Source of the DNA: Halalkalibacterium halodurans | GTDB taxonomy: Bacteria; Bacillota; Bacilli; Bacillales; Bacillaceae_D | Reading direction: 5' to 3' | Assembly: GCF_004376175.1 (NCBI RefSeq) | Contig: NZ_SNUY01000005.1 | Coordinates: forward strand, 75,193-107,192 | Length of the DNA stretch: 32,000 bases | Shown: piece after piece, positions 10,901-24,179 of the stretch | Layout: the number at the start of each line of letters is the position of its first letter | Position numbering within the stretch: position 1 is the stretch's first letter | Position numbers and translations under genes: made by a program | The notes under the pieces: generated by a model | What the model was told of the DNA's origin: nothing | Seen by the model: the letters and a program-made list of their open reading frames with translations, nothing else | Database searches by the model: none

Positions 10901-11163
10901 CGTCCATTCCTCCCTTGGTTTATGGTATATGAACGGTTACGACGTAAGAAGGAGAAACCCTTTGCCCTTCTTAAAAATTAAGTGAAAGGTACTAGCCTAA
11001 CATATAGAACGGCGTACCATCCTACCTGCACCTCTGTCATTTATTTGAATATGCGATTGGCTCGATCTAATGTTCCACTTTTGATCAACCCTGGTGAAAA
11101 AGCGAAAAATAACACGTCCCAGACCGAACGTAAACATAGGATTGATCTTTTTTGAACGTGCAA

Positions 11164-11199
11164 AATCGTCCTTGATGGCAGATGCCTACAAGGACGATT
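11164..11199 (-). terminator. Terminator closing the amt-NTase-exonuclease operon
   Basis: Perfect 11-bp stem AATCGTCCTTG / CAAGGACGATT with a 14-nt loop, followed on the minus strand by TTTTG. It overlaps the exonuclease stop codon. Confidence 0.6.
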
Positions 11200-11929
11200 A
11201 TTTACGCTGATGAGCCAAATGGACATAAATGTCTCTTAGCGTTTCAAAACCTGCCTCTTTCGCAGCAGCGATGGCCGCTATCCATAGCTTCGCTGTCATT
11301 AGGGAGTCTTCAAGAGCATGATGACGATTTTGTACAGGAATGGAATAATAGGCACAGCAATCATCAAGGGTGACCAGCTCTTGCGGTGCCACTATTTTCG
11401 TTAAAAACGATGTATCAATCACTCGGTGCTCAAAAGGAAGCTTCATCGTTTGCCAAGTGACATGGGACATAAACGCTTTTTCATGACTGGCATGGTGGGC
11501 CACGAGCGTCGAATGACGAATGAACGCATAAAACGATTCAAGCACGCTCGTTAATGGAGGAGCAGCCTCCAGTTCTTCCACGCTCAAACCTGTTAATTCG
11601 AGGATGTTTTCAGGGGGAACTGTATCGGTATGGACGACAGAATAAAATGTTTCCTCCTCCTGAATCGTTAATCCAACAACTTTGACAGCACCAATCGACA
11701 AAATCCGATCCCCTTGGTCTGGATAAAAGCCGCTTGTCTCCAAATCAAAAACGACGACGGGCAGCTTTTCTAACGGGAGATCCAATACGTCAGATCGCCT
11801 TATCTCCCGTTGCAGCTGTCTGACGTAAGACCATTGTTGAGCAGAGGAAGGTGCCTGAGCCGATGTATAGACATTCGGGCTCAATTTCGAGGATAACTGC
11901 TTCATTAGCTGTACCATTTGATTCATCAT
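11198..11929 (-). CDS. DnaQ-like (DEDDh-type, RNase T/Pol III epsilon fold) 3'-5' exonuclease
   Basis: Motif I VVVFDLETSGF, motif II region LVAHHASHEKAF, motif III HHALEDSLMTAKL. Start is ATG 11929, which overlaps the upstream TGA (ATGA). Confidence 0.85.
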   Translation of the reverse strand: MMNQMVQLMKQLSSKLSPNVYTSAQAPSSAQQWSYVRQLQREIRRSDVLDLPLEKLPVVVFDLETSGFYPDQGDRILSIGAVKVVGLTIQEEETFYSVVHTDTVPPENILELTGLSVEELEAAPPLTSVLESFYAFIRHSTLVAHHASHEKAFMSHVTWQTMKLPFEHRVIDTSFLTKIVAPQELVTLDDCCAYYSIPVQNRHHALEDSLMTAKLWIAAIAAAKEAGFETLRDIYVHLAHQRK

Positions 11930-12936
11930 AACGACCATTCCCTTTTCACAGCTTCCTCGACTGAACGGTATAATTTGTGCCCTGTGACCGTCCATGCTTT
12001 TAACTCATTCCGTTCGTCTTTCGTTAACTGTGTGAGATCAAGATAATGAATTCGCTCATAATTGGGTACATCTTGCTGCCACTCCAATCGTTTGGACAGC
12101 AATTGCTCAAACATTCGCTTTGTTTCATAGACGTCCAAATAACGATCTCGAATCGCTTCATATCTGGCGACTGTTGGAGCCGCTGTAATCTGCTCTTTTA
12201 AGGCTAATAGCCGTAGTGCGTTCACATACGGAAACAACGTTACTTGCTTAATATCGAACAGTCCTCTAGCTGTACCCTTTGATTCAACGAGCAACTGTCC
12301 GAACAGACCGATCCCCTTTTTTAGTCGTTCGGTGTTTTGCATAAATCGTTTTAACAGCTGACGATTCGTTTCGATGCGCTGTAGCAAGTTCACCTTGACG
12401 TCTTCCATTAAATTGGCATCCCCAACGAGAGGGCGCCCATCGAAAAACGTTAACAAATGGCGATAGGCTTCCCACGTGTTTTCTTTCATCCATCGTTGCT
12501 GCTGATCATGCCAAGCCGCTTGACTGCAACACCAGCGCGGATGTGAAGCCATGACCAGCCCATCACACCGTTCATAGCCGACTTTGGCTAGCCCCTCCTC
12601 AATTTCACGGCCTAGAGCTAAAAAATAAGCTTGATTGTCATCATGCTCCTCTAAGTAAAGAAGACCGTGATCTTGATCGCTCCAAATTGACTGTTCCATT
12701 CGGCCGGCACTGCCCATCACAAAGAACACAAAGTGAGTAGGAGGTGCCCCCCACTCACTTTCGATTCGTTGTAGTGCTAGTGCAACGACTTGTTTGATGA
12801 TCTCATCATGACAATGGTTTAACGTCTGATGATCCTTTTTTGTAGAGCTAATCAAGGTCAGCCGATGTTGCAAAAGTTCACCATAACTGTCCGCTGCACG
12901 GATAATGCTCAGATCATCCGACCTTTTCTGAGCCAT
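11926..12936 (-). CDS. Pol-beta-fold nucleotidyltransferase, DUF294-type (GlnD-like NTase plus DUF294_C-like helical domain)
   Basis: MGSAGRMEQSIWSDQDHGLLY matches the G-[SG]-x-G-R-x-E...D-x-D NTase signature. The C-terminal half (GLFDIKQVTLFPYVNALRLLALKE) resembles the DUF294 substrate-binding domain. ATG lies 2 nt after the amt stop, with AGGAG inside the amt 3' end. Confidence 0.8.
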   Translation of the reverse strand: MAQKRSDDLSIIRAADSYGELLQHRLTLISSTKKDHQTLNHCHDEIIKQVVALALQRIESEWGAPPTHFVFFVMGSAGRMEQSIWSDQDHGLLYLEEHDDNQAYFLALGREIEEGLAKVGYERCDGLVMASHPRWCCSQAAWHDQQQRWMKENTWEAYRHLLTFFDGRPLVGDANLMEDVKVNLLQRIETNRQLLKRFMQNTERLKKGIGLFGQLLVESKGTARGLFDIKQVTLFPYVNALRLLALKEQITAAPTVARYEAIRDRYLDVYETKRMFEQLLSKRLEWQQDVPNYERIHYLDLTQLTKDERNELKAWTVTGHKLYRSVEEAVKREWSL

Positions 12937-12938
12937 CT

Positions 12939-14204
12939 TTATGCTCCTGATTTTTCGGAACCTGGCATGCTTTCAGGATATCCGTAGCTTCCATGCTCAC
13001 TTAAGTCAAGACCAATGATTTCTTCTTCTTCTGTTACACGAAGACCACCGAGTACAGACTTACATACAAGGAGTAGTACGTATGAAGCGATAAAAGCGAA
13101 CACACCACAAGCGACAACGCTCAACGTTTGAACGCCTAATTGTGCAAAACCACCGCCGTAGAACAAGCCCGCTTGACCACCGTTCATCTCTGCAAGCTCA
13201 GGAGTGGCAAAGAACCCTGTAGAAAGTGTCCCCCACACCCCGGCCACACCATGGACCGAGAGAGCAAAGATTGGGTCATCAATTTTCGCTTTATCGAAAA
13301 ATTTCATGCTGAAGTAAACGATAAGTCCACCAACAATTCCGATGACAACTGCGGCCCACGGCGCAACGAACGCACATGACGCTGTGATCGCAACAAGACC
13401 AGCTAATGCTCCATTTAAGGTTGTCGGTACATCTGCTTTTCCTGATAGAGCCCATGCAATGAACATGGCAGCGACTGCACCTGCAGCGGCAGCAAGCTGA
13501 GTATTTAACGCAACATAACCGAAGAATGCGTCGGCCACTTCTAGCGTACTACCTGCGTTGAAGCCGAACCAACCGACCCAAAGAAGCAATACACCCAATG
13601 CTGTATACACTTGGTTGTGACCTTGAATATCGTTCATCGAGCCATCTTTGTTGTATTTGCCTAAACGCGGCTTTAATAAGATCGTAGCTGCTAGAGCCCC
13701 CATCGCACCCGTTAAGTGAACGACGGTCGATCCTGCAAAGTCTTGTTTTCCTAAGTCAGCAAGCCAGCCATCTCCCCAAATCCAGTGAGCGACAATTGGA
13801 TAAACGAATGCAGAAAACAAAACCGCAAACAGGATATAGACTGATAGCTTCGCACGCTCCGCAAATCCACCAAACGCAATCGTGAGCGCAATGGCAGCGA
13901 ACATTAATTGGAAAAAGAAATCGACCGAGCCGACTAGTCCCTCTTCAGCCGTTGAGTAATCGCCGAAGAAGAAATCAGAAAGACCGATAAAAGCGTTCCC
14001 CTCTCCGTAAGTGAACCCCCAGCCTACTGCCCAATAAACGAGGGATGCAATCCCAACTGTAAAAATCGTTTTTCCGGCAATATGACCAGCGTTCTTCATT
14101 CTTGTTGAGCCAGCTTCAAGTAAAATAAATCCACCTTGCATTAACAAAACAAGAACGGCACATAGCATAATCCACACGTTATCCATTAAAGCAATGGAAT
14201 CCAT
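12939..14204 (-). CDS. amt: Ammonium transporter (Amt/NrgA family)
   Basis: 11-12 TM protein with LMQGGFILLEAG, AGSTVVHLTGA, WFGFNAGS and HGVAGVWGTL, which are Amt/MEP signatures. Confidence 0.93.
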   Translation of the reverse strand: MDSIALMDNVWIMLCAVLVLLMQGGFILLEAGSTRMKNAGHIAGKTIFTVGIASLVYWAVGWGFTYGEGNAFIGLSDFFFGDYSTAEEGLVGSVDFFFQLMFAAIALTIAFGGFAERAKLSVYILFAVLFSAFVYPIVAHWIWGDGWLADLGKQDFAGSTVVHLTGAMGALAATILLKPRLGKYNKDGSMNDIQGHNQVYTALGVLLLWVGWFGFNAGSTLEVADAFFGYVALNTQLAAAAGAVAAMFIAWALSGKADVPTTLNGALAGLVAITASCAFVAPWAAVVIGIVGGLIVYFSMKFFDKAKIDDPIFALSVHGVAGVWGTLSTGFFATPELAEMNGGQAGLFYGGGFAQLGVQTLSVVACGVFAFIASYVLLLVCKSVLGGLRVTEEEEIIGLDLSEHGSYGYPESMPGSEKSGA

Positions 14205-14266
14205 ATAGCCTCTCCTCCCCTTTGTTACTGTAAGTTTTTCTAATATGAACAGTTGATGTACTCCTT

Positions 14267-14295
14267 ATTATAAGGTCTAAATATTCTGAATCTAC
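14267..14295 (-). promoter_or_regulatory. Candidate amt promoter: perfect -10 TATAAT with a weak -35
   Basis: Minus-strand TATAAT at 14272-14267. The hexamer 17 nt upstream is GTAGAT, a poor -35 as expected for an activator-dependent promoter. Confidence 0.35.
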
Positions 14296-14300
14296 AACCA

Positions 14301-14317
14301 TGTCAGATAATCAGACA
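14301..14317. promoter_or_regulatory. TnrA/GlnR-type box 1: TGTCAGATAATCAGACA
   Basis: Matches TGTNA-N7-TNACA at all but position 13. It is part of a 21-nt near-palindrome CATGTCAGATAATCAGACATG. Its centre is about 49 nt upstream of the start site implied by the TATAAT. Confidence 0.55.
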
Positions 14318-14325
14318 TGGTATTT

Positions 14326-14342
14326 TGTGCCTATATCTGACA
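14326..14342. promoter_or_regulatory. TnrA/GlnR-type box 2: TGTGCCTATATCTGACA
   Basis: One mismatch (position 5) to TGTNA-N7-TNACA. Its centre is 25 bp from box 1. Confidence 0.4.
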
Positions 14343-14449: not shown

Positions 14450-14791
14450 ATGTTCATTGATGTCTTTGTCCCTTATTCATTCGTGTTGCGGATACGTCAA
14501 CAGCACTCCACCGAGATGGCAACCGTTTCGTTAACGCTGATCGAGCGAACATTTGGCAAGAAAAATGGCCGCTGGACACAAACGACGACATCCCTTGTCT
14601 CAACGGGAAAAGCATTCTCAATCGACGAGCTAGATCTTCCACAAAGCTGGCAGCTAGAGCTAGCATCAAACGAAGGAAGATTCGAAATAGATCAGCCGAT
14701 TCGACGAGATTGGTTTGACGAATATAAGTACGCTTCACCAGAACGACTTTGGGAACTTTGTAAGAAGCTCTATCCAGCCCTTAGCCTGTAA
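14450..14791 (+). CDS. Hypothetical protein, 113 aa
   Basis: GGAGG-rich RBS region upstream of ATG 14450 and its own terminator downstream. No recognisable motif. The true start could be M23 (MATVSL). Confidence 0.55.
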   Translation: MFIDVFVPYSFVLRIRQQHSTEMATVSLTLIERTFGKKNGRWTQTTTSLVSTGKAFSIDELDLPQSWQLELASNEGRFEIDQPIRRDWFDEYKYASPERLWELCKKLYPALSL

Positions 14792-14792
14792 G

Positions 14793-14825
14793 ACAGTTGC
14801 CCTTGTTTGGGGTAGCTGTTTTTTG
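14793..14825 (+). terminator. Terminator of the 113-aa ORF
   Basis: ACAGTTGCCC-ttgtttg-GGGTAGCTGT (with G-U pairs) followed by TTTTTTG. Confidence 0.7.
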
Positions 14826-16386: not shown

Positions 16387-17418
16387 TCACACTCCATTGT
16401 TATCTTGCTTTGAAAACCACTTAATCAGAAATGGTAGGCAAAGGAAAAGGGCAAGCACTCGCGCCATCTGTAAGGTCGCTACCATCGCTGGCTCCATTTG
16501 CAAGGCCGTAGCCGTTGAAGCCATTTCCGCTGCTCCAGCCGGGACAATGCTAAGTAAACTCATGTACCATTCTAGTGGTGTCATCCACGTAAATAAACCT
16601 GCCAATCCAAGACTCATAATGAAATATAGCAACAACGTAATGGCGCTAATAAACCCCATTCGCTTCAATTCACCAAAGGTTTCTCGATCAAATCGAGCAC
16701 CAATTACCGCTCCCATCACTCCTTGAGCCACACCTTGCACATAGCCCGGAAGAATGATCTGAGGAAACAGTGTGTGGACAAGAAAGCCAAGACCGATCGC
16801 AAAGAAGAGGGATGCTCCTGGGAACGTCACATGCTTGCTCAGAAAAATGGTCAACACAACGACTGCCATTAATGCCCCAAGCGCTAAAAGCGTCTCATCT
16901 AGTGGGAGAAACATTGTACCCAGTCCCGTCCGCCCCGTCACATTTAAGCCAACAAATAGAGGGATGACAAAAACAAAAAATGTAATCCTTGTCGTATGAA
17001 AAGCTGCTACAATCCGTTGATCAGCCCCATAGTCTTTACTGAGCGCAATAACCTCCGAGGCTCCTCCTGGCATGCAGCAAAAGAACGCCGTATTGTGATT
17101 CACGTTTGAGAACCGTTTTAAAAACTTCCCGAGTAAAATCCCGCCGCATAATGTCAAAACAAGAGTAACGACAAAAGGACCGAGCAAGGAGTGGTATTGC
17201 AAAAATTGCTCAGGCCTTAACATGAAGCCGATGTTGCCACCAATCACAGCCAATGTCCATTTAAACAATCGATCAGGTAGCATGATTTTCTTTATCCATA
17301 ATGTACAGACCATTCCTGACAAAAGTGAGCCTAATAGCCATCCTGCAGGCACTTGAAAAGCGGCAAACAGCGCGCCAACCGCTACTGTCACCGCGAGAAA
17401 TACCCCTTTACTGAGCAT
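16387..17418 (-). CDS. AbrB-duplication family membrane protein (misnamed 'putative ammonia monooxygenase'; YhjN-like), function unknown
   Basis: 343-aa polytopic protein with the family's N-terminal QVPAGWLLGSLLSG motif and a second internal copy (PGASLFFAIGLG...), indicating an internal duplication. Confidence 0.75.
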   Translation of the reverse strand: MLSKGVFLAVTVAVGALFAAFQVPAGWLLGSLLSGMVCTLWIKKIMLPDRLFKWTLAVIGGNIGFMLRPEQFLQYHSLLGPFVVTLVLTLCGGILLGKFLKRFSNVNHNTAFFCCMPGGASEVIALSKDYGADQRIVAAFHTTRITFFVFVIPLFVGLNVTGRTGLGTMFLPLDETLLALGALMAVVVLTIFLSKHVTFPGASLFFAIGLGFLVHTLFPQIILPGYVQGVAQGVMGAVIGARFDRETFGELKRMGFISAITLLLYFIMSLGLAGLFTWMTPLEWYMSLLSIVPAGAAEMASTATALQMEPAMVATLQMARVLALFLCLPFLIKWFSKQDNNGV

Positions 17419-17523
17419 CGTATCGCCTTCTTTTGCAAATTCAACCCTTCTATCTTATTATGATGGAAAAACGGCTAATACGAAAATCATCTGACTGAAC
17501 AGATGGAAATCACACCCTTACTT

Positions 17524-18210
17524 TTAACATAAAAAGTAGCGACGTTCAGGGCGGCCCACATCTCCATAATTCACTTCGGCCTTTGCCTTTTTTGTATGGA
17601 TCAAATATTCAAAATAGCGGCGAACCGTTGAACGACTTGCCCCAATGAGCCGGGCACCTTCCATCGCCGTAAGCCCTTGAGTTTCCGCCTCCTCTAACGC
17701 CTTTACCACCTTTTCAAGCGTTAGACGATCAATTCCTTTAGGCAATGGAGTCTCCCCTACCTGGACTTGGACTTGACGCAATTGGTCAAGCTCTTCTTGA
17801 CTGACCTGTCGCCTCTCTCCGAACAACTCCCGCTTTTGTACATACGCGTCTAACCGTTGATGAAGGACTTCTTTTTGGACTGGCTTTAATAAATAATCAA
17901 TAATTCCGCCCCGTAGTGCTTCTTGCACCGTATCCACTTCCTTGGCTGCGGTCACCATCATAATGTCCACACCTCGGAACTTTTCTCGAATCGCCCATAA
18001 CAGTTCAAGACCTTTAACATCAGGGATATAGACATCCAAAAGAATCAAATCAAGAGCAGCAGCCTTTTCGCTCAAATAATCGAGCGCTTCAGCCCCAGTC
18101 CGACACGTAGAGATCACATGAAAATTGGGATGATCGTTCACCATTTGCTCTTGTATTTGAGCGACGCGAAAATCATCTTCTATGATAAGTACTTTGTACG
18201 GTTTCGTCAT
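17524..18210 (-). CDS. Response regulator, CitB/CitT/DctR/MalR family
   Basis: Receiver domain (VLIIEDDF...LILLDVYIPD...K) plus a C-terminal HTH (ARLIGASRSTVRRYFEYL). ATG 18210 overlaps the kinase TGA (ATGA), and AAGGAGG lies 9-10 nt upstream. Confidence 0.9.
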   Translation of the reverse strand: MTKPYKVLIIEDDFRVAQIQEQMVNDHPNFHVISTCRTGAEALDYLSEKAAALDLILLDVYIPDVKGLELLWAIREKFRGVDIMMVTAAKEVDTVQEALRGGIIDYLLKPVQKEVLHQRLDAYVQKRELFGERRQVSQEELDQLRQVQVQVGETPLPKGIDRLTLEKVVKALEEAETQGLTAMEGARLIGASRSTVRRYFEYLIHTKKAKAEVNYGDVGRPERRYFLC

Positions 18211-19832
18211 GATACCCAACCCTCCTTTGCTTCATGTTTTGGGATCGTTAATACGAAACAAGCTCCGCCTAACTCACCTTCCTCTAAGAAAATAGCTCCC
18301 CCCAGCTCGTGAACCGCCTTTTTAACAAGGGCTAGGCCAAACCCGCGATGCGTCCCTTCCTTCGTCGAAAATCCCTCTTCAAAGATCGATTCCATTAATT
18401 GCGGCGGAATGCCCGGTCCGTTATCTTCCACTTCAAAGATAAAATCATCGCCCATGTCTGTGAATGAGATGTAAATCTTTTTATTCTCTATCCCACTTGC
18501 TAACAACGCATCAAATGCATTTTCTAACAGATTACCGATCATCGTAACGAGCAGTTCCTGCTGTCGTTCATGTAGCGGTGTCAATAGTTGGCTGGACGGG
18601 TCAATATCCACATCGATTCCAAGTTCCTGGGCCTGACTAATTTTTCCTAATAGAACAGCGCTTACCGTCGGATCGTTCACACGTTCAATAAAAAAGTGAA
18701 TCCATTCTTGCTGAATTTTTCTTTCTTTATGAATAAAGTCAACGGCCTCATCTATCTTTCCTAGCTGAAGGAAGCCTGAGATCGTGTTCAATTTATTAGA
18801 AAACTCATGAGTTTGCGCTCGTAAAGCGTCGGCATAATTTTTCACGTTCGTTAACTCTTCTGAAAGCTTTTTTATTTCATTTCGATCGCGAAACGTAGCA
18901 ACCGCTCCGACAATCTCATGATCGTAGTAAATCGGCACCCGATTGACAACGGCCTGCTTATCCCCAATGCGAAGTTCCTGATCATACTGGCCCTTTCCTA
19001 CTTGAAGCACTTCAGGCAAGCGCGTATGTTTGACAAGATCGGTTACGTGCCGGCCTAATACATCCTCCTTGTCAAGTCCCGGGTCTACATACTTCATAGC
19101 AGCCTGATTAAACAACGTGACCTTCCCTTCTTTATTGACTGCGATAACCCCTTCATGAATCGACTGTAGGATCGCCTCTTTTTGTTGAAATTGCTGACCA
19201 ATCTCCTCTGGTTCTAGCCCTAATGTCGCTTTTTTCACCGTGTTTGCTACGAGCCATGTACCCATTAGACCGAGAATCATGATAACAACGACAATTTGCC
19301 ACATGGCGATTAACCGTTCCCCGATCACTTGCTGAATATCCTCCATTAAAAATCCAACTGAAACAATCCCGATGATTTTTCCATTGTCATCAAAGACCGG
19401 TACCTTGCCGCGAATCGATGGACCGAGCGACCCAACAGCTTTTGATACGTATGATTCCCCGTGTACAAGTGCCCGTTCATTATCACCGCCCACCATCCGC
19501 TGACCGATCCGTTCAGGAAGAGGATGGGCATAGCGGATCAAGTCCGTATTCCCAACAACAATAAACTCAGCCCCTGTTTCGACCCGAATACTCTCAGCAA
19601 TCGGTTGGATGATTTCGTCTGGCCGTTCCGCTGAAAAAGCCTCGCGAAGTTCCGGGATGAGGGCGACCGCCTGTGCCACACTTAGCGCTCGCTCCCCCAT
19701 TTGTTCCTCGAGTGTGCGAGCATATTGCTCATTTAAGAAAACCCCGAGCAACACAAACATGGCAATGATTAATAAAGCGATAAAGCCCATCATTTTTGCG
19801 GAAAATGTAAGTGGAAAGAGTCGTCGTTTCAT
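18207..19832 (-). CDS. Sensor histidine kinase, CitA/DcuS/DctS family
   Basis: Two TM segments flank a periplasmic sensor domain. These are followed by a PAS-like segment, H-box THEFSNKLNTISGFLQLG, and HATPase N/G boxes (NLLENAFDA, DNGPGI, GFGLALV). Start is ATG 19832 (MKRRLFPL), with AGGAG 8 nt upstream. Confidence 0.9.
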   Translation of the reverse strand: MKRRLFPLTFSAKMMGFIALLIIAMFVLLGVFLNEQYARTLEEQMGERALSVAQAVALIPELREAFSAERPDEIIQPIAESIRVETGAEFIVVGNTDLIRYAHPLPERIGQRMVGGDNERALVHGESYVSKAVGSLGPSIRGKVPVFDDNGKIIGIVSVGFLMEDIQQVIGERLIAMWQIVVVIMILGLMGTWLVANTVKKATLGLEPEEIGQQFQQKEAILQSIHEGVIAVNKEGKVTLFNQAAMKYVDPGLDKEDVLGRHVTDLVKHTRLPEVLQVGKGQYDQELRIGDKQAVVNRVPIYYDHEIVGAVATFRDRNEIKKLSEELTNVKNYADALRAQTHEFSNKLNTISGFLQLGKIDEAVDFIHKERKIQQEWIHFFIERVNDPTVSAVLLGKISQAQELGIDVDIDPSSQLLTPLHERQQELLVTMIGNLLENAFDALLASGIENKKIYISFTDMGDDFIFEVEDNGPGIPPQLMESIFEEGFSTKEGTHRGFGLALVKKAVHELGGAIFLEEGELGGACFVLTIPKHEAKEGWVS

Positions 19833-19975
19833 GGCCCGCTCTCCTGCTCTCTTAAAGTAATAAACGCTTTCATTTGTTAATGATAGCGAATTCTCGGTCA
19901 CTTTTCACGGATGGGATGAAAACGGTCACAGCATCCACCCATAATTACCCATATATAGAATCAGTTTATTTGAAA

Positions 19976-20153: not shown

Positions 20154-21152
20154 TTGAAGCGCCACCTTTTTTTTGTGGTTGGTTTTATGATTTGTATTAG
20201 TGCTCTCGCAACGTCTATTTATTCGTTCGTCCAAGTCACTAGAGTGGAGACGAATGTCCCTTCATCCACATCTATTTCGCTTCCCTCCTCTCATTTTGTA
20301 TTAATCGCAGAGGAAGAAAACAATTCTTATTGGCGCCTCGTTGAAAAGGGAGCACGAGAAGCAGAAAATCAGTTTGACGTCCTTGTAGAATATAAAGCAC
20401 CGAAGCGCTCCAATCCGGAAGAACAATTAAAACTAATTGACATGGCAATTTCAGCAAAAGTGGACGGGATCATCGTGCAAGCTGTAAACGAAGAAATGTT
20501 TACACCGCTCATCAATAAGGCGGTAGACGCTGGCATCCCGGTTATTACAATTGATACCGATGCACCTCGAAGCAATCGTGTCGCATACATCGGCACCGAT
20601 AACTACTATTCTGGGACGATTGCCGGTAAGGCGATGCTAGACGACATGGAAGGTGACATTCACGTCGCTGTCATCACAGGTAGTCTAGAATCTTCCCATC
20701 AAAAGCTGCGCGTCCAAGGATTTATCGATATGATTTCAAATGAGCCCCGCGTGACGCTTGTTGAGGTGGAAGCATCCAACATTTCTCGTTTAGAAGCGGA
20801 ACTAAAAGCGCATCAACTAATGGAGGAGCATCCACACATTAATGCATTTTACGGAACGAGTGCCCTCGACGGTATCGGGATTGTGGCAGCAGCCGAAAAA
20901 CTGGGCCTAGACGACTTGTATGTGATTGCGTTCGATACGTTACCAGAAAACCTATCGTTACTAGAGCAAGAAAAAATCGATGCTATTGTCGTACAGGAGC
21001 CTTTCGAAATGGGATTGAAAAGCGTCGAGCTCCTTTTGGATATTCGTGAAGGTCAACCCTATTCAATGACAAACCATACGCACACATCGATCATTCGGAA
21101 ACCAGATCTTTCTTTACTTCAAGAACATCAACGGTTAGGTGATAAACAATGA
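20154..21152 (+). CDS. Membrane-anchored periplasmic-binding-protein type I (RbsB/LacI-fold) sugar sensor
   Basis: N-terminal TM helix, then VDGIIVQAVN, AGIPVITIDTD, AYIGTDNY and IDAIVVQEPFEMG, typical of monosaccharide-binding PBPs. TTG start follows GGGGGAGG. The stop overlaps the kinase start (ATGA). Confidence 0.85.
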   Translation: MKRHLFFVVGFMICISALATSIYSFVQVTRVETNVPSSTSISLPSSHFVLIAEEENNSYWRLVEKGAREAENQFDVLVEYKAPKRSNPEEQLKLIDMAISAKVDGIIVQAVNEEMFTPLINKAVDAGIPVITIDTDAPRSNRVAYIGTDNYYSGTIAGKAMLDDMEGDIHVAVITGSLESSHQKLRVQGFIDMISNEPRVTLVEVEASNISRLEAELKAHQLMEEHPHINAFYGTSALDGIGIVAAAEKLGLDDLYVIAFDTLPENLSLLEQEKIDAIVVQEPFEMGLKSVELLLDIREGQPYSMTNHTHTSIIRKPDLSLLQEHQRLGDKQ

Positions 21153-22594
21153 TCCGAATTCGCACAAAACTGTTAGCCTACTTTCTCGTCTTACTCGTTA
21201 TTTTGATAGCGGTTTCATACTTTTTGTACGCAAGCAATCAACGAACACTCTACCAGTATAATGAAAGTTTTGAACGTTTTTTAGTATTAAATGACATTTC
21301 GCAAACGACCAACCAAATTTATGAAACCTTAAACCAATATGTCACGGAAGAAACACCAGACTTATTCGAAGAGTACAGCGAACAACGCAGCAAGCTGATT
21401 ACCATTCAACAGCAAATAGAGAAGCTTATTCGCAATGAACGCAATGCCGTCCATTTAAAGAACTATGACCATATGGTGACGAGCTTTTTAGAAAAAACCG
21501 AGCAAGCGGCCGAAGGATTTGACGAGCAACGGATCGATGCCTACCCGTTCTATTTGGATGAATCCCAGCAAATTGCCCAATATATTCGGGAAATGACCTT
21601 AACGCTGATCGATGATGAACTGACGAACTACCAACAGTTTTATAACAGCATGCTGCAAAAGCATTCGTACACGACACAGCTCGCGATTTCGATCTTCGTA
21701 TCCATCCTTGTGTTAAGTTCTTTTTTTGCCATCTGGCTTTCGGACGGGATTACTAAACCGATTTCTCGGCTGACGAATGCAGCATATGAAATTTCTAGCG
21801 GCCAGCTGGACGGCAAAGATGTGAAGGTTTCCTCCAATGATGAACTGGCCTTTTTAACGGAAACCTTTAACGACATGAGACAGAACATTTCCGGACTCGT
21901 AAAAGAAATGGAGGAAACGTCCCGCTTAAACCAATTGTTAAAGGAGATGGAATTGCGGAGCTTACAAAGTCAAATTAACCCTCATTTCCTGTTTAATACG
22001 CTGAATGTGATTTTGAAAATGTCTTATATCGAGCAGGCGGAGAAAACGGGAAAATTAATTGCTTCCGTCTCCTCCTTGTTGCGCTACAATTTAGGCTCGC
22101 TTGATCGTACGACAACGGTCGCCGACGAAGCCAACATGCTTCAAGAATACTTTCATATTCTTAAGGCCCGTTTCGGAGATTGGATTTCCCTGTCCTTGAA
22201 CGTGGATGATGAGGCTCGGCCTTACCTCATCCCGTGCTTGACGCTGCAACCTCTCGTAGAGAACGCCTTTATTCATGGGGTTGAACAGATGGAATCAGGA
22301 GCAGCCATTGACGTAACGATTCAAAAGGTGGGAGACTCTCTAACCATTTCAATTTCCGACAATGGAGCAGGAATGGACGAAGCGACGAGGAAAGAGTTGT
22401 TATCATCAAAAGAAGAAGACCAGACCGAGAAGCGAGCAAGTGGAGGTCACTCCACAGGAATCGGCATGAGAAATGTCATGAGACGACTGGAGATTTTTTA
22501 TCAGAAAACGGAGTTACTGACGATTGAATCTAGCTTAGGAGAAGGAACAACCGTCTCCTTGCTGCTTCCAACAAAGGAGGTTTGCGATGATTAA
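21149..22594 (+). CDS. Sensor histidine kinase, YesM/LytS-type (HAMP plus His_kinase plus HATPase_c)
   Basis: Two TM segments, a HAMP region (ITKPISRLTNAAYEISSGQLD), the hallmark LQSQINPHFLFNTLN box, and an ATPase domain (LVENAFIHG, DNGAGM, GIGMRNV). Confidence 0.9.
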   Translation: MIRIRTKLLAYFLVLLVILIAVSYFLYASNQRTLYQYNESFERFLVLNDISQTTNQIYETLNQYVTEETPDLFEEYSEQRSKLITIQQQIEKLIRNERNAVHLKNYDHMVTSFLEKTEQAAEGFDEQRIDAYPFYLDESQQIAQYIREMTLTLIDDELTNYQQFYNSMLQKHSYTTQLAISIFVSILVLSSFFAIWLSDGITKPISRLTNAAYEISSGQLDGKDVKVSSNDELAFLTETFNDMRQNISGLVKEMEETSRLNQLLKEMELRSLQSQINPHFLFNTLNVILKMSYIEQAEKTGKLIASVSSLLRYNLGSLDRTTTVADEANMLQEYFHILKARFGDWISLSLNVDDEARPYLIPCLTLQPLVENAFIHGVEQMESGAAIDVTIQKVGDSLTISISDNGAGMDEATRKELLSSKEEDQTEKRASGGHSTGIGMRNVMRRLEIFYQKTELLTIESSLGEGTTVSLLLPTKEVCDD

Positions 22595-24179
22595 CGTACT
22601 CATTGTCGACGATGAACAAATCGAACGAGAAGGCTTGAAGCTTTTTTTAAAAGACCGACCCAACATACACATCGTCGGTGAAGCGAGCAATGGCCGCCAA
22701 GCGATCGAAAAAGCGCTCGAAACCCAGCCTGACCTAATGATGATGGATATTAAAATGCCGGGAGTGGACGGTGTCCAAGCAGTAAAAGAAATTAAACAAC
22801 AGTTACCTGAAACCGAGTTTATTATGGTTTCGGCCTTTGATACGTTTGAATACGCTCGTGAAGTGATGCGATATGGAGTAAAAGAGTATTTATTAAAGCC
22901 GACAACGAAGGAAGATGTTCTTACAGCCCTTGACCGGATCGTGGGTGAAATTGAACAAGCTCGTGAGGAAAAAAACGACCAGTACAAGTTACAACAACGG
23001 TTAGAGCAGATCTCTTCCTTTGTGCAAACCGAATCGATTCTTTATTTACTAATGGACCATATCCAAGACTATGAATGGATGGAATGGAATGAGTGGCTAC
23101 GAACAGAGCAGGAAGGTTATGCCGTCGTCTTCTCTTTCCATCAACAAGGAAAAGAGATTCGCAAAACGGAAAAACAGCAATGGCATGCACGGATAAAAAA
23201 AGAGATCGGGTTACAGTTGCCAAAATCGACGGTTGGTCCGTTTATCGGCCATCATTTACCGATTTTAATGCTCACAGAAAACGAAAATGGTATGACGAAA
23301 CAAGAACGCGAACAAGTGGTGATCCAGCTTTTACATAAGGTGAAACAGGCCGTACAACCTGCAAAAGTAAAGACAGGGGTTGGCGGAATTTACCCATTAC
23401 ACTCTTTTTCTACTTCCTATCGCGAGGCTCTTCTTGCCCTTGATATTATTTATGATCACAAGCAAGCATCGTACTATTTTTATGATAAAAATGTTAAAAT
23501 TAGGGCAGACGAACAACTTCCCATTGAACGGGAAAACAAGCTCATTGAAGCCATTAAAAGTGGGGACGGAGAAAAAGCCCTTCAAGCATTCGACCACTAC
23601 GTCCAAGCAATCTTGCGTTGTTCTAAGCACCCGCTGCATGACATGCGTAAACACTTGCAGCAGCTCTTTATTATACTCGGTCGCCTGTTGAACGAGATGG
23701 GGCTTCACTGGGAGACGGCACAGGATTTCGCTCGTTTCTCCACGGTGCATCAAGTAACCGAACACGGCAAAAGCGAAATTCTCCACATCGTTCGTACACT
23801 GCAAGAATGGCGGACAACCGATGCGCAGTCGCTGATGCTCCTTGCCCGTGACTATGTGCACGATCATTTTCGTGAACCGCTCACCCTCGATGACTTAGCG
23901 AAGCACATTGGACTTAGCCCTTACTATGTAAGCAAGCTTTTTAAAGAGCGGTTTGACTTGACGTTTTCCGAGTATGTGACACAGTTGCGCGTGGAGCATG
24001 CGAAGCAGCTGCTGTCGTTGACCCAAAAGAGCTTAAAAGAAATAACGTATGAGATTGGCTACAAGGACCCGAATTATTTTAGCCGAGTGTTTAAAAAATT
24101 AACTGGCAAAAGTCCGAGCGACTATCGAAAATCGATAAATGGTCTCGGCCCAAGGGAGGATACACTAAATGGGGAATAA
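22587..24179 (+). CDS. Response regulator with AraC-type HTH output (YesN-like)
   Basis: CheY-like receiver (VLIVDDE...DLMMMDIKMPGVDG...K) and a C-terminal AraC/XylS HTH (LDDLAKHIGLSPYYVSKLFK...GYKDPNYFSRVFKK.TG.SP.DYR). AAGGAGG RBS. An 8-nt overlap with the kinase gene. Confidence 0.9.
   Translation: MINVLIVDDEQIEREGLKLFLKDRPNIHIVGEASNGRQAIEKALETQPDLMMMDIKMPGVDGVQAVKEIKQQLPETEFIMVSAFDTFEYAREVMRYGVKEYLLKPTTKEDVLTALDRIVGEIEQAREEKNDQYKLQQRLEQISSFVQTESILYLLMDHIQDYEWMEWNEWLRTEQEGYAVVFSFHQQGKEIRKTEKQQWHARIKKEIGLQLPKSTVGPFIGHHLPILMLTENENGMTKQEREQVVIQLLHKVKQAVQPAKVKTGVGGIYPLHSFSTSYREALLALDIIYDHKQASYYFYDKNVKIRADEQLPIERENKLIEAIKSGDGEKALQAFDHYVQAILRCSKHPLHDMRKHLQQLFIILGRLLNEMGLHWETAQDFARFSTVHQVTEHGKSEILHIVRTLQEWRTTDAQSLMLLARDYVHDHFREPLTLDDLAKHIGLSPYYVSKLFKERFDLTFSEYVTQLRVEHAKQLLSLTQKSLKEITYEIGYKDPNYFSRVFKKLTGKSPSDYRKSINGLGPREDTLNGE

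Follow-up and report, generated by a model that had tools for sequence, protein, structure and literature searches.

A locus of Halalkalibacterium halodurans provides a concrete and conserved candidate for how ammonium transport by Amt is restrained in bacteria without the PII protein GlnK. In the 32-kb stretch of genomic DNA that was analyzed (hereafter, the window), the ammonium transporter gene amt is directly followed by two open reading frames (ORFs), ORF2 and ORF3, encoding a DUF294-type nucleotidyltransferase (NTase) and a DnaQ-like exonuclease, and no PII gene lies beside them. What are these two enzymes doing in an operon for ammonium uptake? An initial annotation, made from the nucleotide sequence alone, interpreted them as a nitrogen-regulated pair of a writer and an eraser of a nucleotide mark on a protein or of a short nucleotide signal, a pair that substitutes for or supplements PII. 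Taken as a whole, this interpretation is partly supported by the analysis described below.

The association of the three genes has been known since 2012, when an amtB-DUF294-dnaQ operon was noted in a table footnote for Anoxybacillus, Geobacillus, Paenibacillus, and Brevibacillus (Table 1, footnote d in Kormelink et al. 2012; PMC3412718), and it has never been analyzed. Full-text literature searches returned no study of the triad, and the searchable library contained no further paper connecting DUF294 to an exonuclease or to amtB. New in the present work are the structural class of ORF2, shared with GlnE and DrrA, the census of 80 loci, a GlnR-like fourth gene, fusion proteins, the coupling of DUF294 to transporters across phyla, a glutamate signature in the ExoII motif, and a hairpin within ORF2.

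The triad arrangement is conserved far beyond chance. When one genome for each species was searched with a profile built from 28 short DUF294 proteins, 80 loci from at least 24 genera of Bacillaceae were retrieved, and in all 80 the amt, DUF294, and exonuclease genes have the same order and strand. Identity to the window proteins across these loci is 70-91% for Amt, 41-53% for the DUF294 protein, and 43-74% for the exonuclease. The median gap between amt and the DUF294 gene is 14 nt; between the DUF294 and exonuclease genes the median is -4 nt, an overlap, and the largest gap is no more than 7 nt. The same triad was found in Brevibacillus and on one metagenomic contig, the DUF294 protein there being 33% identical to ORF2. 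The genes that flank the triad vary among the loci, and thus the triad is a unit rather than a product of passive synteny. The neighborhood census called for by the initial annotation therefore bore out the conservation of the triad next to amt.

In the window itself, the amt product matches the Pfam family Ammonium_transp (E-value 5.3e-119) and TIGR00836 (419 bits vs. a cutoff of 343), and a hypothetical protein of Halalkalibacterium (Bacillus) halodurans has the same sequence as ORF2 (100% identity). The amt stop codon (TAA, 12939-12941) is followed 2 nt later by the ATG of ORF2 (12936), and the TGA of ORF2 overlaps the ATG of ORF3 as ATGA (11926-11929). A hairpin behind ORF3 (11164-11199) has a folding energy of -25.6 kcal/mol (z = -6.9), and none of 200 shuffled sequences folds as well. 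The ORFs, the junctions, the embedded AGGAG, and the ATGA overlap had all been read exactly in the initial annotation, and the layout is best explained by a single operon in which the three genes are predicted to be cotranscribed and translationally coupled. The coordinates of its features are collected in Table 1. An Rfam scan of the whole window found no known RNA family.

The ORF2 protein matches two Pfam families, DUF294 (PF03445; 3.6e-33, 114.8 bits vs. a cutoff of 21) and DUF294_C (PF10335; 5.2e-22, 78.7 bits vs. a cutoff of 22.5), and the same scan detected in it no cNMP-binding or CBS sensor domain and neither an HD nor an ACT domain. Hidden Markov models, both above their gathering scores, thus uphold its original description as a DUF294/DUF294_C NTase free of sensor domains. 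N-terminal cNMP-binding and CBS domains are a common, not a defining, architecture of DUF294 proteins, and the short sensor-less form is common to all 120 closest homologs of ORF2. Among these 120 proteins, the residues G75, S76, R79, E81, S86, D87, D89, and D166 are invariant, a set that fits the pattern of the pol-beta-type NTases.

The structural model of ORF2 points to a more specific class. The AlphaFold model (predicted local distance difference test, pLDDT, of 94.9; predicted template modeling score, pTM, of 0.92) shows the expected beta-alpha core, and a fold search of the Protein Data Bank (PDB) with this model returned only three significant matches, all with a probability of 1.00 and template modeling (TM) scores of 0.61-0.63: the adenylylation half of Escherichia coli GlnE (3k7d, E 1.7e-7), the deadenylylation half of GlnE (1v4a, E 8.5e-7), and the Legionella Rab AMPylase DrrA (6yx5, E 2.8e-6). 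The next match has an E-value of 0.075, and terminal uridylyltransferases (TUTases), cGAS/DncV-like nucleotidyltransferases (CD-NTases), and aminoglycoside NTases all match the model at E > 0.07. In pairwise profile alignments by hhalign, the ORF2 motif MGSAGRxEQSxWSDQD is placed, in register though weakly, on GGYGRGELHPLSDVD of GlnD and GKLGGGELNFSSDID of GlnE. Because of the fold matches and the in-register catalytic motif, ORF2 as modeled is assigned to the GlnE/GlnD/DrrA class of protein-nucleotidylylating enzymes, of which it is a stand-alone catalytic module.

At the level of sequence, searches of the PDB with the DUF294 profile and with the NTase core alone detected no solved structure; the nominal profile hits to glycoside hydrolase 110, CheA, and designed "Pizza" repeats are spurious. 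A role as an anti-phage defense NTase, as in the cyclic oligonucleotide-based antiphage signaling system (CBASS) and similar systems, was considered and rejected: PADLOC assigned ORF2 to 0 families, and the gene context is of a housekeeping kind. For ORF3, the only PADLOC match was to a generic DEDDh domain model.

ORF3 is, by its motifs and domain matches, a predicted DnaQ-type exonuclease of the DEDDh fold. It matches RNase_T (2.6e-24) and the NCBIfam equivalog model PRK07740 (377 bits vs. a cutoff of 261), which is itself named "hypothetical protein". Motifs I and III, reported by the initial annotation, are both present, and their residues D62, E64, H203, and D208 are invariant in the ORF3 family; a correction concerns motif II, where Glu150 occupies the place of the usual aspartate. 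This substitution, which retains the acidic character, was found in all 93 Amt-linked homologs, whereas the exonucleases paired with long, sensor-bearing DUF294 proteins retain the canonical aspartate (F-D). The glutamate could mark a changed substrate. The closest solved relatives of ORF3 are the exonuclease domains of PolC, DinG, and DnaQ; the PDB entries 2p1j and 8zef match it at 2.7e-31 and 2.4e-23, and the DinG exonuclease domain and DnaQ at E-values of ~1e-12 to 1e-11. The protein also carries a conserved N-terminal extension of ~55 aa that is predicted at low confidence, as expected if it takes on its fold only in contact with a partner.

A separate observation concerns the start of ORF3. 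The annotated protein (P0121, 265 aa) begins at the ATG at 11995 and would give a 70-nt overlap with ORF2 (region 11930-11995). The ORF3 homologs are 237-250 aa long and can be aligned from the ATG at 11929; thus, the public start is probably too far upstream.

No PII gene accompanies the triad. A tblastn search with E. coli GlnB gave no match in the window even at E<=10, and at E<=1e-5 it found no PII gene within 10 kb of any of the 80 loci, in agreement with the reported absence of a PII gene beside amt. A search with B. subtilis GlnK gave, among the best 120 of 8000 scored candidates, proteins of the B. subtilis group, clostridial proteins, and generic PII proteins, and none from a triad-bearing genus, which is a weak negative. 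The published table lists one tnrA, no glnR, one amtB, and no glnK gene for B. halodurans C-125, for which the triad was not flagged (PMC3412718). Six of the eight flagged genomes in that table lack glnK, and the other two, which have glnK, carry two or three amtB copies (PMC3412718). The proposed substitution of PII by the enzyme pair is argued solely from this complementary distribution in one published table.

One short ORF near amt deserves mention here. It encodes 113 aa, lies divergent from amt (14450-14791, plus strand), and has a terminator-like hairpin at 14790-14822. The initial annotation had stated that there was no PII-sized GlnK/NrgB ORF on either side; an ORF of this size does exist, and it has no Pfam or NCBIfam match and no PII similarity. 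Among the 80 loci, it is kept in Halalkalibacterium ligniniphilum only (L001:7974-8312, 46% identity).

The upstream region of amt connects the operon to nitrogen control. Two TnrA/GlnR-type boxes and a TATAAT hexamer with a weak -35 element were predicted there (Table 1), the weak -35 element being expected for an activator-dependent promoter. A box centered at approximately -49 occupies the position found in the TnrA-activated promoters of B. subtilis. Supplementary file 3 of Kormelink et al. 2012 (PMC3412718) lists two predicted TnrA sites for BH3834 (amtB): ATGTCTGATTATCTGACAT, 96 nt upstream with a score of 0.90, corresponds to box B, and ATATTAGAAAAACTTACAG, 24 nt upstream with a score of 0.87, corresponds to the box in the 5' leader, which is likely to be an operator. 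Within 250 nt upstream of amt, a perfect TGTNAN7TNACA box is present in 68 of the 80 loci and a box with at most one mismatch in 79, and 70 loci have at least two boxes; the background rate is 0.13 boxes per 250 nt. In the relatives, the same TATAAT lies ~45 nt downstream of the distal box, and the position class of the box is conserved.

Regulator genes provide a second connection. In 55 of the 80 loci, a short gene of the MerR family is located at most 200 nt 3' of the exonuclease gene on the same strand (e.g., L005:11718-11990 and L001:11749-12099). Its product has a MerR_1 domain, is 90-128 aa long, lacks the C-terminal tail of GlnR, and shares 54% identity with the first 90 residues of B. 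subtilis GlnR. Six further loci have a true tnrA gene (NF053740, 180 bits vs. a cutoff of 140) 156-431 nt upstream of amt. Since 61 of the 80 genomes thus have a nitrogen regulator gene physically next to the triad, the enzymes are tied to nitrogen control independently of the boxes. A tblastn search of the window at E<=1 found neither the GlnR-like fourth gene, which is absent from 10901-11197, nor an upstream tnrA; H. halodurans either lost the fourth gene or never had it, which agrees with the published absence of glnR from B. halodurans (PMC3412718). Regulation of the operon by nitrogen through TnrA is thus predicted from boxes that are conserved upstream of amt and coincide with published predicted sites; the initial annotation had supposed nitrogen regulation.

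The operon contains an additional RNA element. The hairpin behind ORF3 had been described as the only strong one, but a second, terminator-like hairpin of 14 bp lies inside ORF2 (12730-12761). It lies 175 nt into the coding region, is conserved in most of 79 related loci, is followed by U-rich phenylalanine codons, and is the top terminator-like match of the region. The homologous segment in 79 loci folds at a median of -20 kcal/mol vs. -8.9 for shuffles; in the named structure, 84% of the cells pair vs. 46-59% in slid controls, and none of 500 shuffles reaches its covariation score. When native sequences of the 79 loci were compared with synonymous recodings that kept the protein and the local codon usage, the median z was -3.3, with values below -2 in 80% of loci, vs. 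a median of -0.07 and 5% of values below -2 for control segments of the same genes. Because the native sequences fold far below their recodings, codon choice is constrained to keep the RNA hairpin. No consensus containing this hairpin emerged from RNAalifold, likely due to register shifts and a weak middle pair, so that its support comes from the folding of single sequences, the pairing counts, and the recoding controls; the hairpin is missing from a Neobacillus-like subgroup (L050, L060, L071-L073, and L077), which has tnrA upstream. The hairpin may be an internal attenuator or a 3'-end stabilizer that determines how much Amt is made relative to the two enzymes, and it thus bears on whether transcripts end after amt, a result that the initial annotation had named as evidence against its interpretation.

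Pairs of DUF294 and exonuclease genes are found far beyond the Bacillaceae. A DUF294 profile search gave 3,799 clusters at 50% identity (2,782 at E<=1e-10), among which the short forms rank nearest and the forms with cNMP-binding/CBS, PAS, and Cache domains further out; ORF2 is 25-31% identical to the sampled long-form and plasmid-borne homologs. In Pseudomonas aeruginosa (L083), the genes for a DUF485 protein, an acetate symporter, a cNMP/CBS-DUF294 protein, and an exonuclease stand in series; the initial annotation was correct on the actP-linked pairs and their cNMP/CBS sensors. Ruegeria has a series of DUF4212, SSS transporter, DUF294, hypothetical, and exonuclease genes; Hymenobacter has an exonuclease-DUF294 pair, and another pair is carried on a Cytobacillus megaplasmid. 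Two fusions extend this picture. The metagenomic protein P0518 (877 aa, L095:4335-6968) has the domain order cNMP-CBS-CBS-DUF294-DUF294_C-RNase_T, and its gene directly follows those for an SSF transporter and a Cache protein. P0524 (1091 aa, L098:2238-5513) combines an N-terminal PHP domain and a Cache-PAS-CBS region with a C-terminal DUF294 domain, and its gene directly follows a DUF485-SSF transporter. The pairs and fusions suggest that a phosphoesterase is an integral partner of the DUF294 NTase. The DUF294 module thus recurs just 3' of a transporter, which is Amt in Bacillales and an ActP-like SSF permease (DUF485/DUF4212-SSF) elsewhere. An apparent short DUF294-RNase_T fusion (P0413, 339 aa) was not used; it lacks DUF294_C and half of the exonuclease domain.

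Comparison with four known systems delimits what the triad shares with each of them. GlnE and DrrA (SidM), like ORF2, combine an NTase core with a helical domain behind it, with the motif G-x-G-x-E...SD-x-D in register, and GlnE likewise belongs to nitrogen assimilation. However, GlnE contains a pair of NTase modules and uses one of them to take off AMP by phosphorolysis, whereas ORF2 is a single module of 336 aa and the presumed remover is a separate protein of the DEDDh exonuclease fold. We know of no adenylylation of Bacillus glutamine synthetase. GlnD with GlnK-AmtB resembles the triad in the NTase superfamily and motif and in the genetic tie to amt and nitrogen control; GlnD joins the writer and the eraser in one system, as do the fused DUF294-RNase_T proteins. 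In contrast to ORF2, GlnD has HD and ACT domains and a PII substrate; ORF2 has neither domain and no PII gene nearby, and the eraser is an HD phosphohydrolase in GlnD but a proposed DnaQ-fold enzyme here.

The B. subtilis amtB-glnK (nrgAB) operon shares with the triad a TnrA box centered near -49 (PMC3412718), the first position of amt, and a coupled small partner downstream; the partner is a PII protein in nrgAB but two enzymes in the triad. The yjcH-actP-DUF294-exonuclease clusters of Pseudomonas and Vibrio, controlled by CrbS/R (MxtR/ErdR), have a DUF294+DUF294_C gene overlapped by an RNase_T gene at the 3' side of a transporter, as here. Their NTases differ in carrying cNMP-binding and CBS sensors, their transporter is an SSF acetate permease, their regulator is another one, and their exonucleases have the canonical ExoII aspartate and lack the conserved N-terminal extension of ORF3. 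In these two genera, the DUF294-exonuclease pair is located behind acetate permease genes, and few genes depend as strongly as it does on CrbS/R (MxtR/ErdR). For the Pseudomonas pair (Pflu5625; PP_0354/PP_0353), the function is stated to be unknown (PMC5715377; bioRxiv 10.64898/2026.09.07.749794).

We propose, with a confidence somewhat short of even, that ORF2 and ORF3 constitute a PII-independent, nitrogen-regulated writer/eraser module linked to the uptake of ammonium. Under nitrogen scarcity, TnrA would switch the operon on, so that the transporter would be made together with its own controller. The NTase would attach a nucleoside monophosphate (NMP), most likely adenosine or uridine monophosphate (AMP or UMP), to a hydroxyl group of a protein of ammonium uptake or assimilation, the candidate targets being Amt, glutamine synthetase, and a TnrA/GlnR-type regulator. 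The exonuclease-fold enzyme would then cleave the O-P(5')-nucleoside phosphodiester and free 5'-NMP, a reaction that is chemically the same as the trimming of a 3'-terminal nucleotide by an exonuclease. Together they would act as a fast, reversible post-translational brake on ammonium entry in genomes without glnK, as GlnK does (with GlnD in proteobacteria). The sensor-less form may receive its signal by contact with Amt or its partner, whereas the long forms would use cNMP-binding, CBS, or Cache domains.

Several points weigh against this proposal. We know of no enzyme of the DEDD fold that removes NMP from a protein, and the nearest solved relatives of ORF3 (PolC, DinG, and DnaQ) are DNA proofreading domains. 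The match of ORF2 to the GlnE/DrrA fold is moderate (TM of ~0.62, root-mean-square deviation of 5.5-7.7 A), and hhalign gives only a weak match when it is compared with one E. coli sequence each of GlnD and GlnE (E 0.012, probability of ~3.5%). Some DUF294-exonuclease pairs have no neighboring transporter (L081, L084, and L088), and some DUF294 genes have no neighboring exonuclease (L090 and L091). Deletion of the Pseudomonas homologs had little or no phenotype (PMC5715377; bioRxiv 10.64898/2026.09.07.749794). The absence of glnK from the whole H. halodurans genome is taken from one paper (PMC3412718), and amtB occurs in many Bacilli that lack glnK and, according to the table of that paper, DUF294 as well; thus, Amt is not strictly dependent on either partner.

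A wider generalization, which we regard as rather doubtful, is that DUF294 NTases and their DnaQ-fold (or PHP) partners form a widespread, previously unrecognized class of transporter-coupled, reversible nucleotidylylation switches, with the exonuclease fold acting as a protein de-nucleotidylylase. The NTase would then AMPylate or UMPylate the neighboring transporter or its assimilation or regulatory partner. The Amt-linked, sensor-less version of Bacillales would replace GlnK as a fast brake on ammonium entry and feed into TnrA or the tail-less GlnR encoded by the fourth gene, and the sensor-bearing versions would serve acetate and SSF permeases in Proteobacteria and Bacteroidota. An understanding of the small Bacillus version could explain a module that is found in at least four phyla and comprises ~3,800 clusters at 50% identity, and the stripping of nucleotides from proteins, if true, would be a new activity for a well-studied fold.

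The proposed modification of a protein has to be weighed against a product of another kind. The pair may make and destroy a small nucleotide-derived signal, or a nucleotidylylated metabolite, that reports the flux through the transporter: the NTase would join NMP to a small molecule or nucleotide, and the DEDDh enzyme would degrade the product as oligoribonuclease degrades dinucleotides. We consider this unlikely. The weaker fold matches of ORF2 do include ANT/AadA/KNTase (probability of 0.2-0.6) and CD-NTases, DEDDh enzymes normally act on nucleotide 3' ends, and the long DUF294 forms carry cNMP-binding and CBS domains that sense nucleotides. However, the significant fold matches are to protein adenylyltransferases only, the CD-NTases and antibiotic NTases remaining at TM < 0.31 in addition to their insignificant E-values; PADLOC gave no signaling or defense NTase model for ORF2; and the operon contains no conserved gene for a receptor or an effector.

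The relationship of ORF3 to the exonuclease domains of PolC, DinG, and DnaQ suggests yet another activity, the addition and trimming of untemplated nucleotides at RNA or DNA 3' ends by enzymes that merely share growth conditions with the transporters. The pol-beta fold is also that of CCA-adding enzymes, poly(A) polymerases, and TUTases, which are distant matches of ORF2. Nevertheless, tailing NTases match ORF2 poorly (TM of 0.18 for the TUTase at E 0.075), and coregulation alone does not explain why the genes stand right beside amt in every one of the 80 loci and are translationally coupled, nor does this explanation account for the GlnR-like fourth gene or for the placement after another transporter family in other phyla. 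We therefore judge it to be less probable still than a small-molecule signal.

That the three genes are juxtaposed without any meaning for ammonium transport, either by inherited synteny or as a selfish or accessory two-gene cassette, would fit the pairs without a transporter (L081, L084, and L088) and the partly syntenic flanks in close relatives (ung upstream; DUF5327, GNAT, and DUF423 downstream), but it is strongly disfavored and highly improbable, since the triad is retained across at least 24 genera despite changing flanks, the Amt-DUF294 coupling holds in Brevibacillus at 33% DUF294 identity, gaps of a few nucleotides are kept, and nitrogen-regulator boxes and regulator genes travel with the triad.

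Table 1. Coordinates of the amt operon and its predicted signals in the window
Feature	Position	Strand	Basis
amt, ammonium transporter, 421 aa (BH3834 in strain C-125)	12939-14204	minus	ORF and HMM matches
ORF2, sensor-less DUF294 + DUF294_C nucleotidyltransferase, 336 aa	11926-12936	minus	GlnE/DrrA structural class
ORF3, DnaQ-like DEDDh 3'-5' exonuclease (predicted), 243 aa	11198-11929	minus	ATG at 11929
TnrA/GlnR-type box A, TGTCAGATATAGGCACA, 1 mismatch to TGTNAN7TNACA	14326-14342	minus	pattern search
TnrA box B, TGTCTGATTATCTGACA, predicted site, centered ~49 nt upstream of the predicted transcription start	14301-14317	minus	pattern search
TATAAT -10 hexamer, weak -35	14267-14272	minus	read directly
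Third TnrA/GlnR-like box, TATTAGAAAAACTTACA, in the 5' leader	14229-14245	minus	pattern search
AGGAG Shine-Dalgarno sequence for ORF2, within the last amt codons	12944-12948	minus	read directly
Conserved terminator-like 14-bp hairpin in ORF2, codons 59-69 (ESEWGAPPTHF)	12730-12761	minus	minimum free energy of -21.5 kcal/mol
Catalytic NTase motif of ORF2, MGSAGRMEQSIWSDQDHGLLY (G-S...D-x-D)	~12655-12717	minus	motif and alignment
Exo I motif of ORF3, FDLETSG (D62, E64)	11729-11749	minus	alignment
Exo II motif of ORF3, HHASHEK, residues 145-151, Glu150 for the usual Asp	11477-11497	minus	alignment
Exo III motif of ORF3, HHALEDS (H203, D208)	11303-11323	minus	alignment
Intrinsic terminator hairpin closing the operon after ORF3	11164-11199	minus	folding and shuffles

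Several further observations concern the Amt protein and the surroundings of the operon. The C-terminus of Amt is Gly-Ala in 58 of 76 loci (in the window, the last two codons, 12942-12947), whatever the distance to the next gene. An origin of this ending as a by-product of the embedded Shine-Dalgarno sequence was rejected, as the ending is also found where the next gene starts 20-40 nt on. Further upstream, an AbrB-family membrane protein and a DpiA/DpiB-like two-component system are encoded at 16387-19901 on the minus strand, and a sugar-binding protein, a histidine kinase, and an AraC-type response regulator at 20154-24179 on the plus strand; these neighbors have no evident link to the amt operon. 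At the other end of the window, two perfect TnrA/GlnR boxes (2187-2203 and 2277-2293) are located upstream of the ORF at 835-2094 on the minus strand, which encodes a sodium:dicarboxylate (glutamate-type) symporter (Pfam SDF, 3.7e-135), and this gene is probably a second nitrogen-regulated transporter gene in the window.

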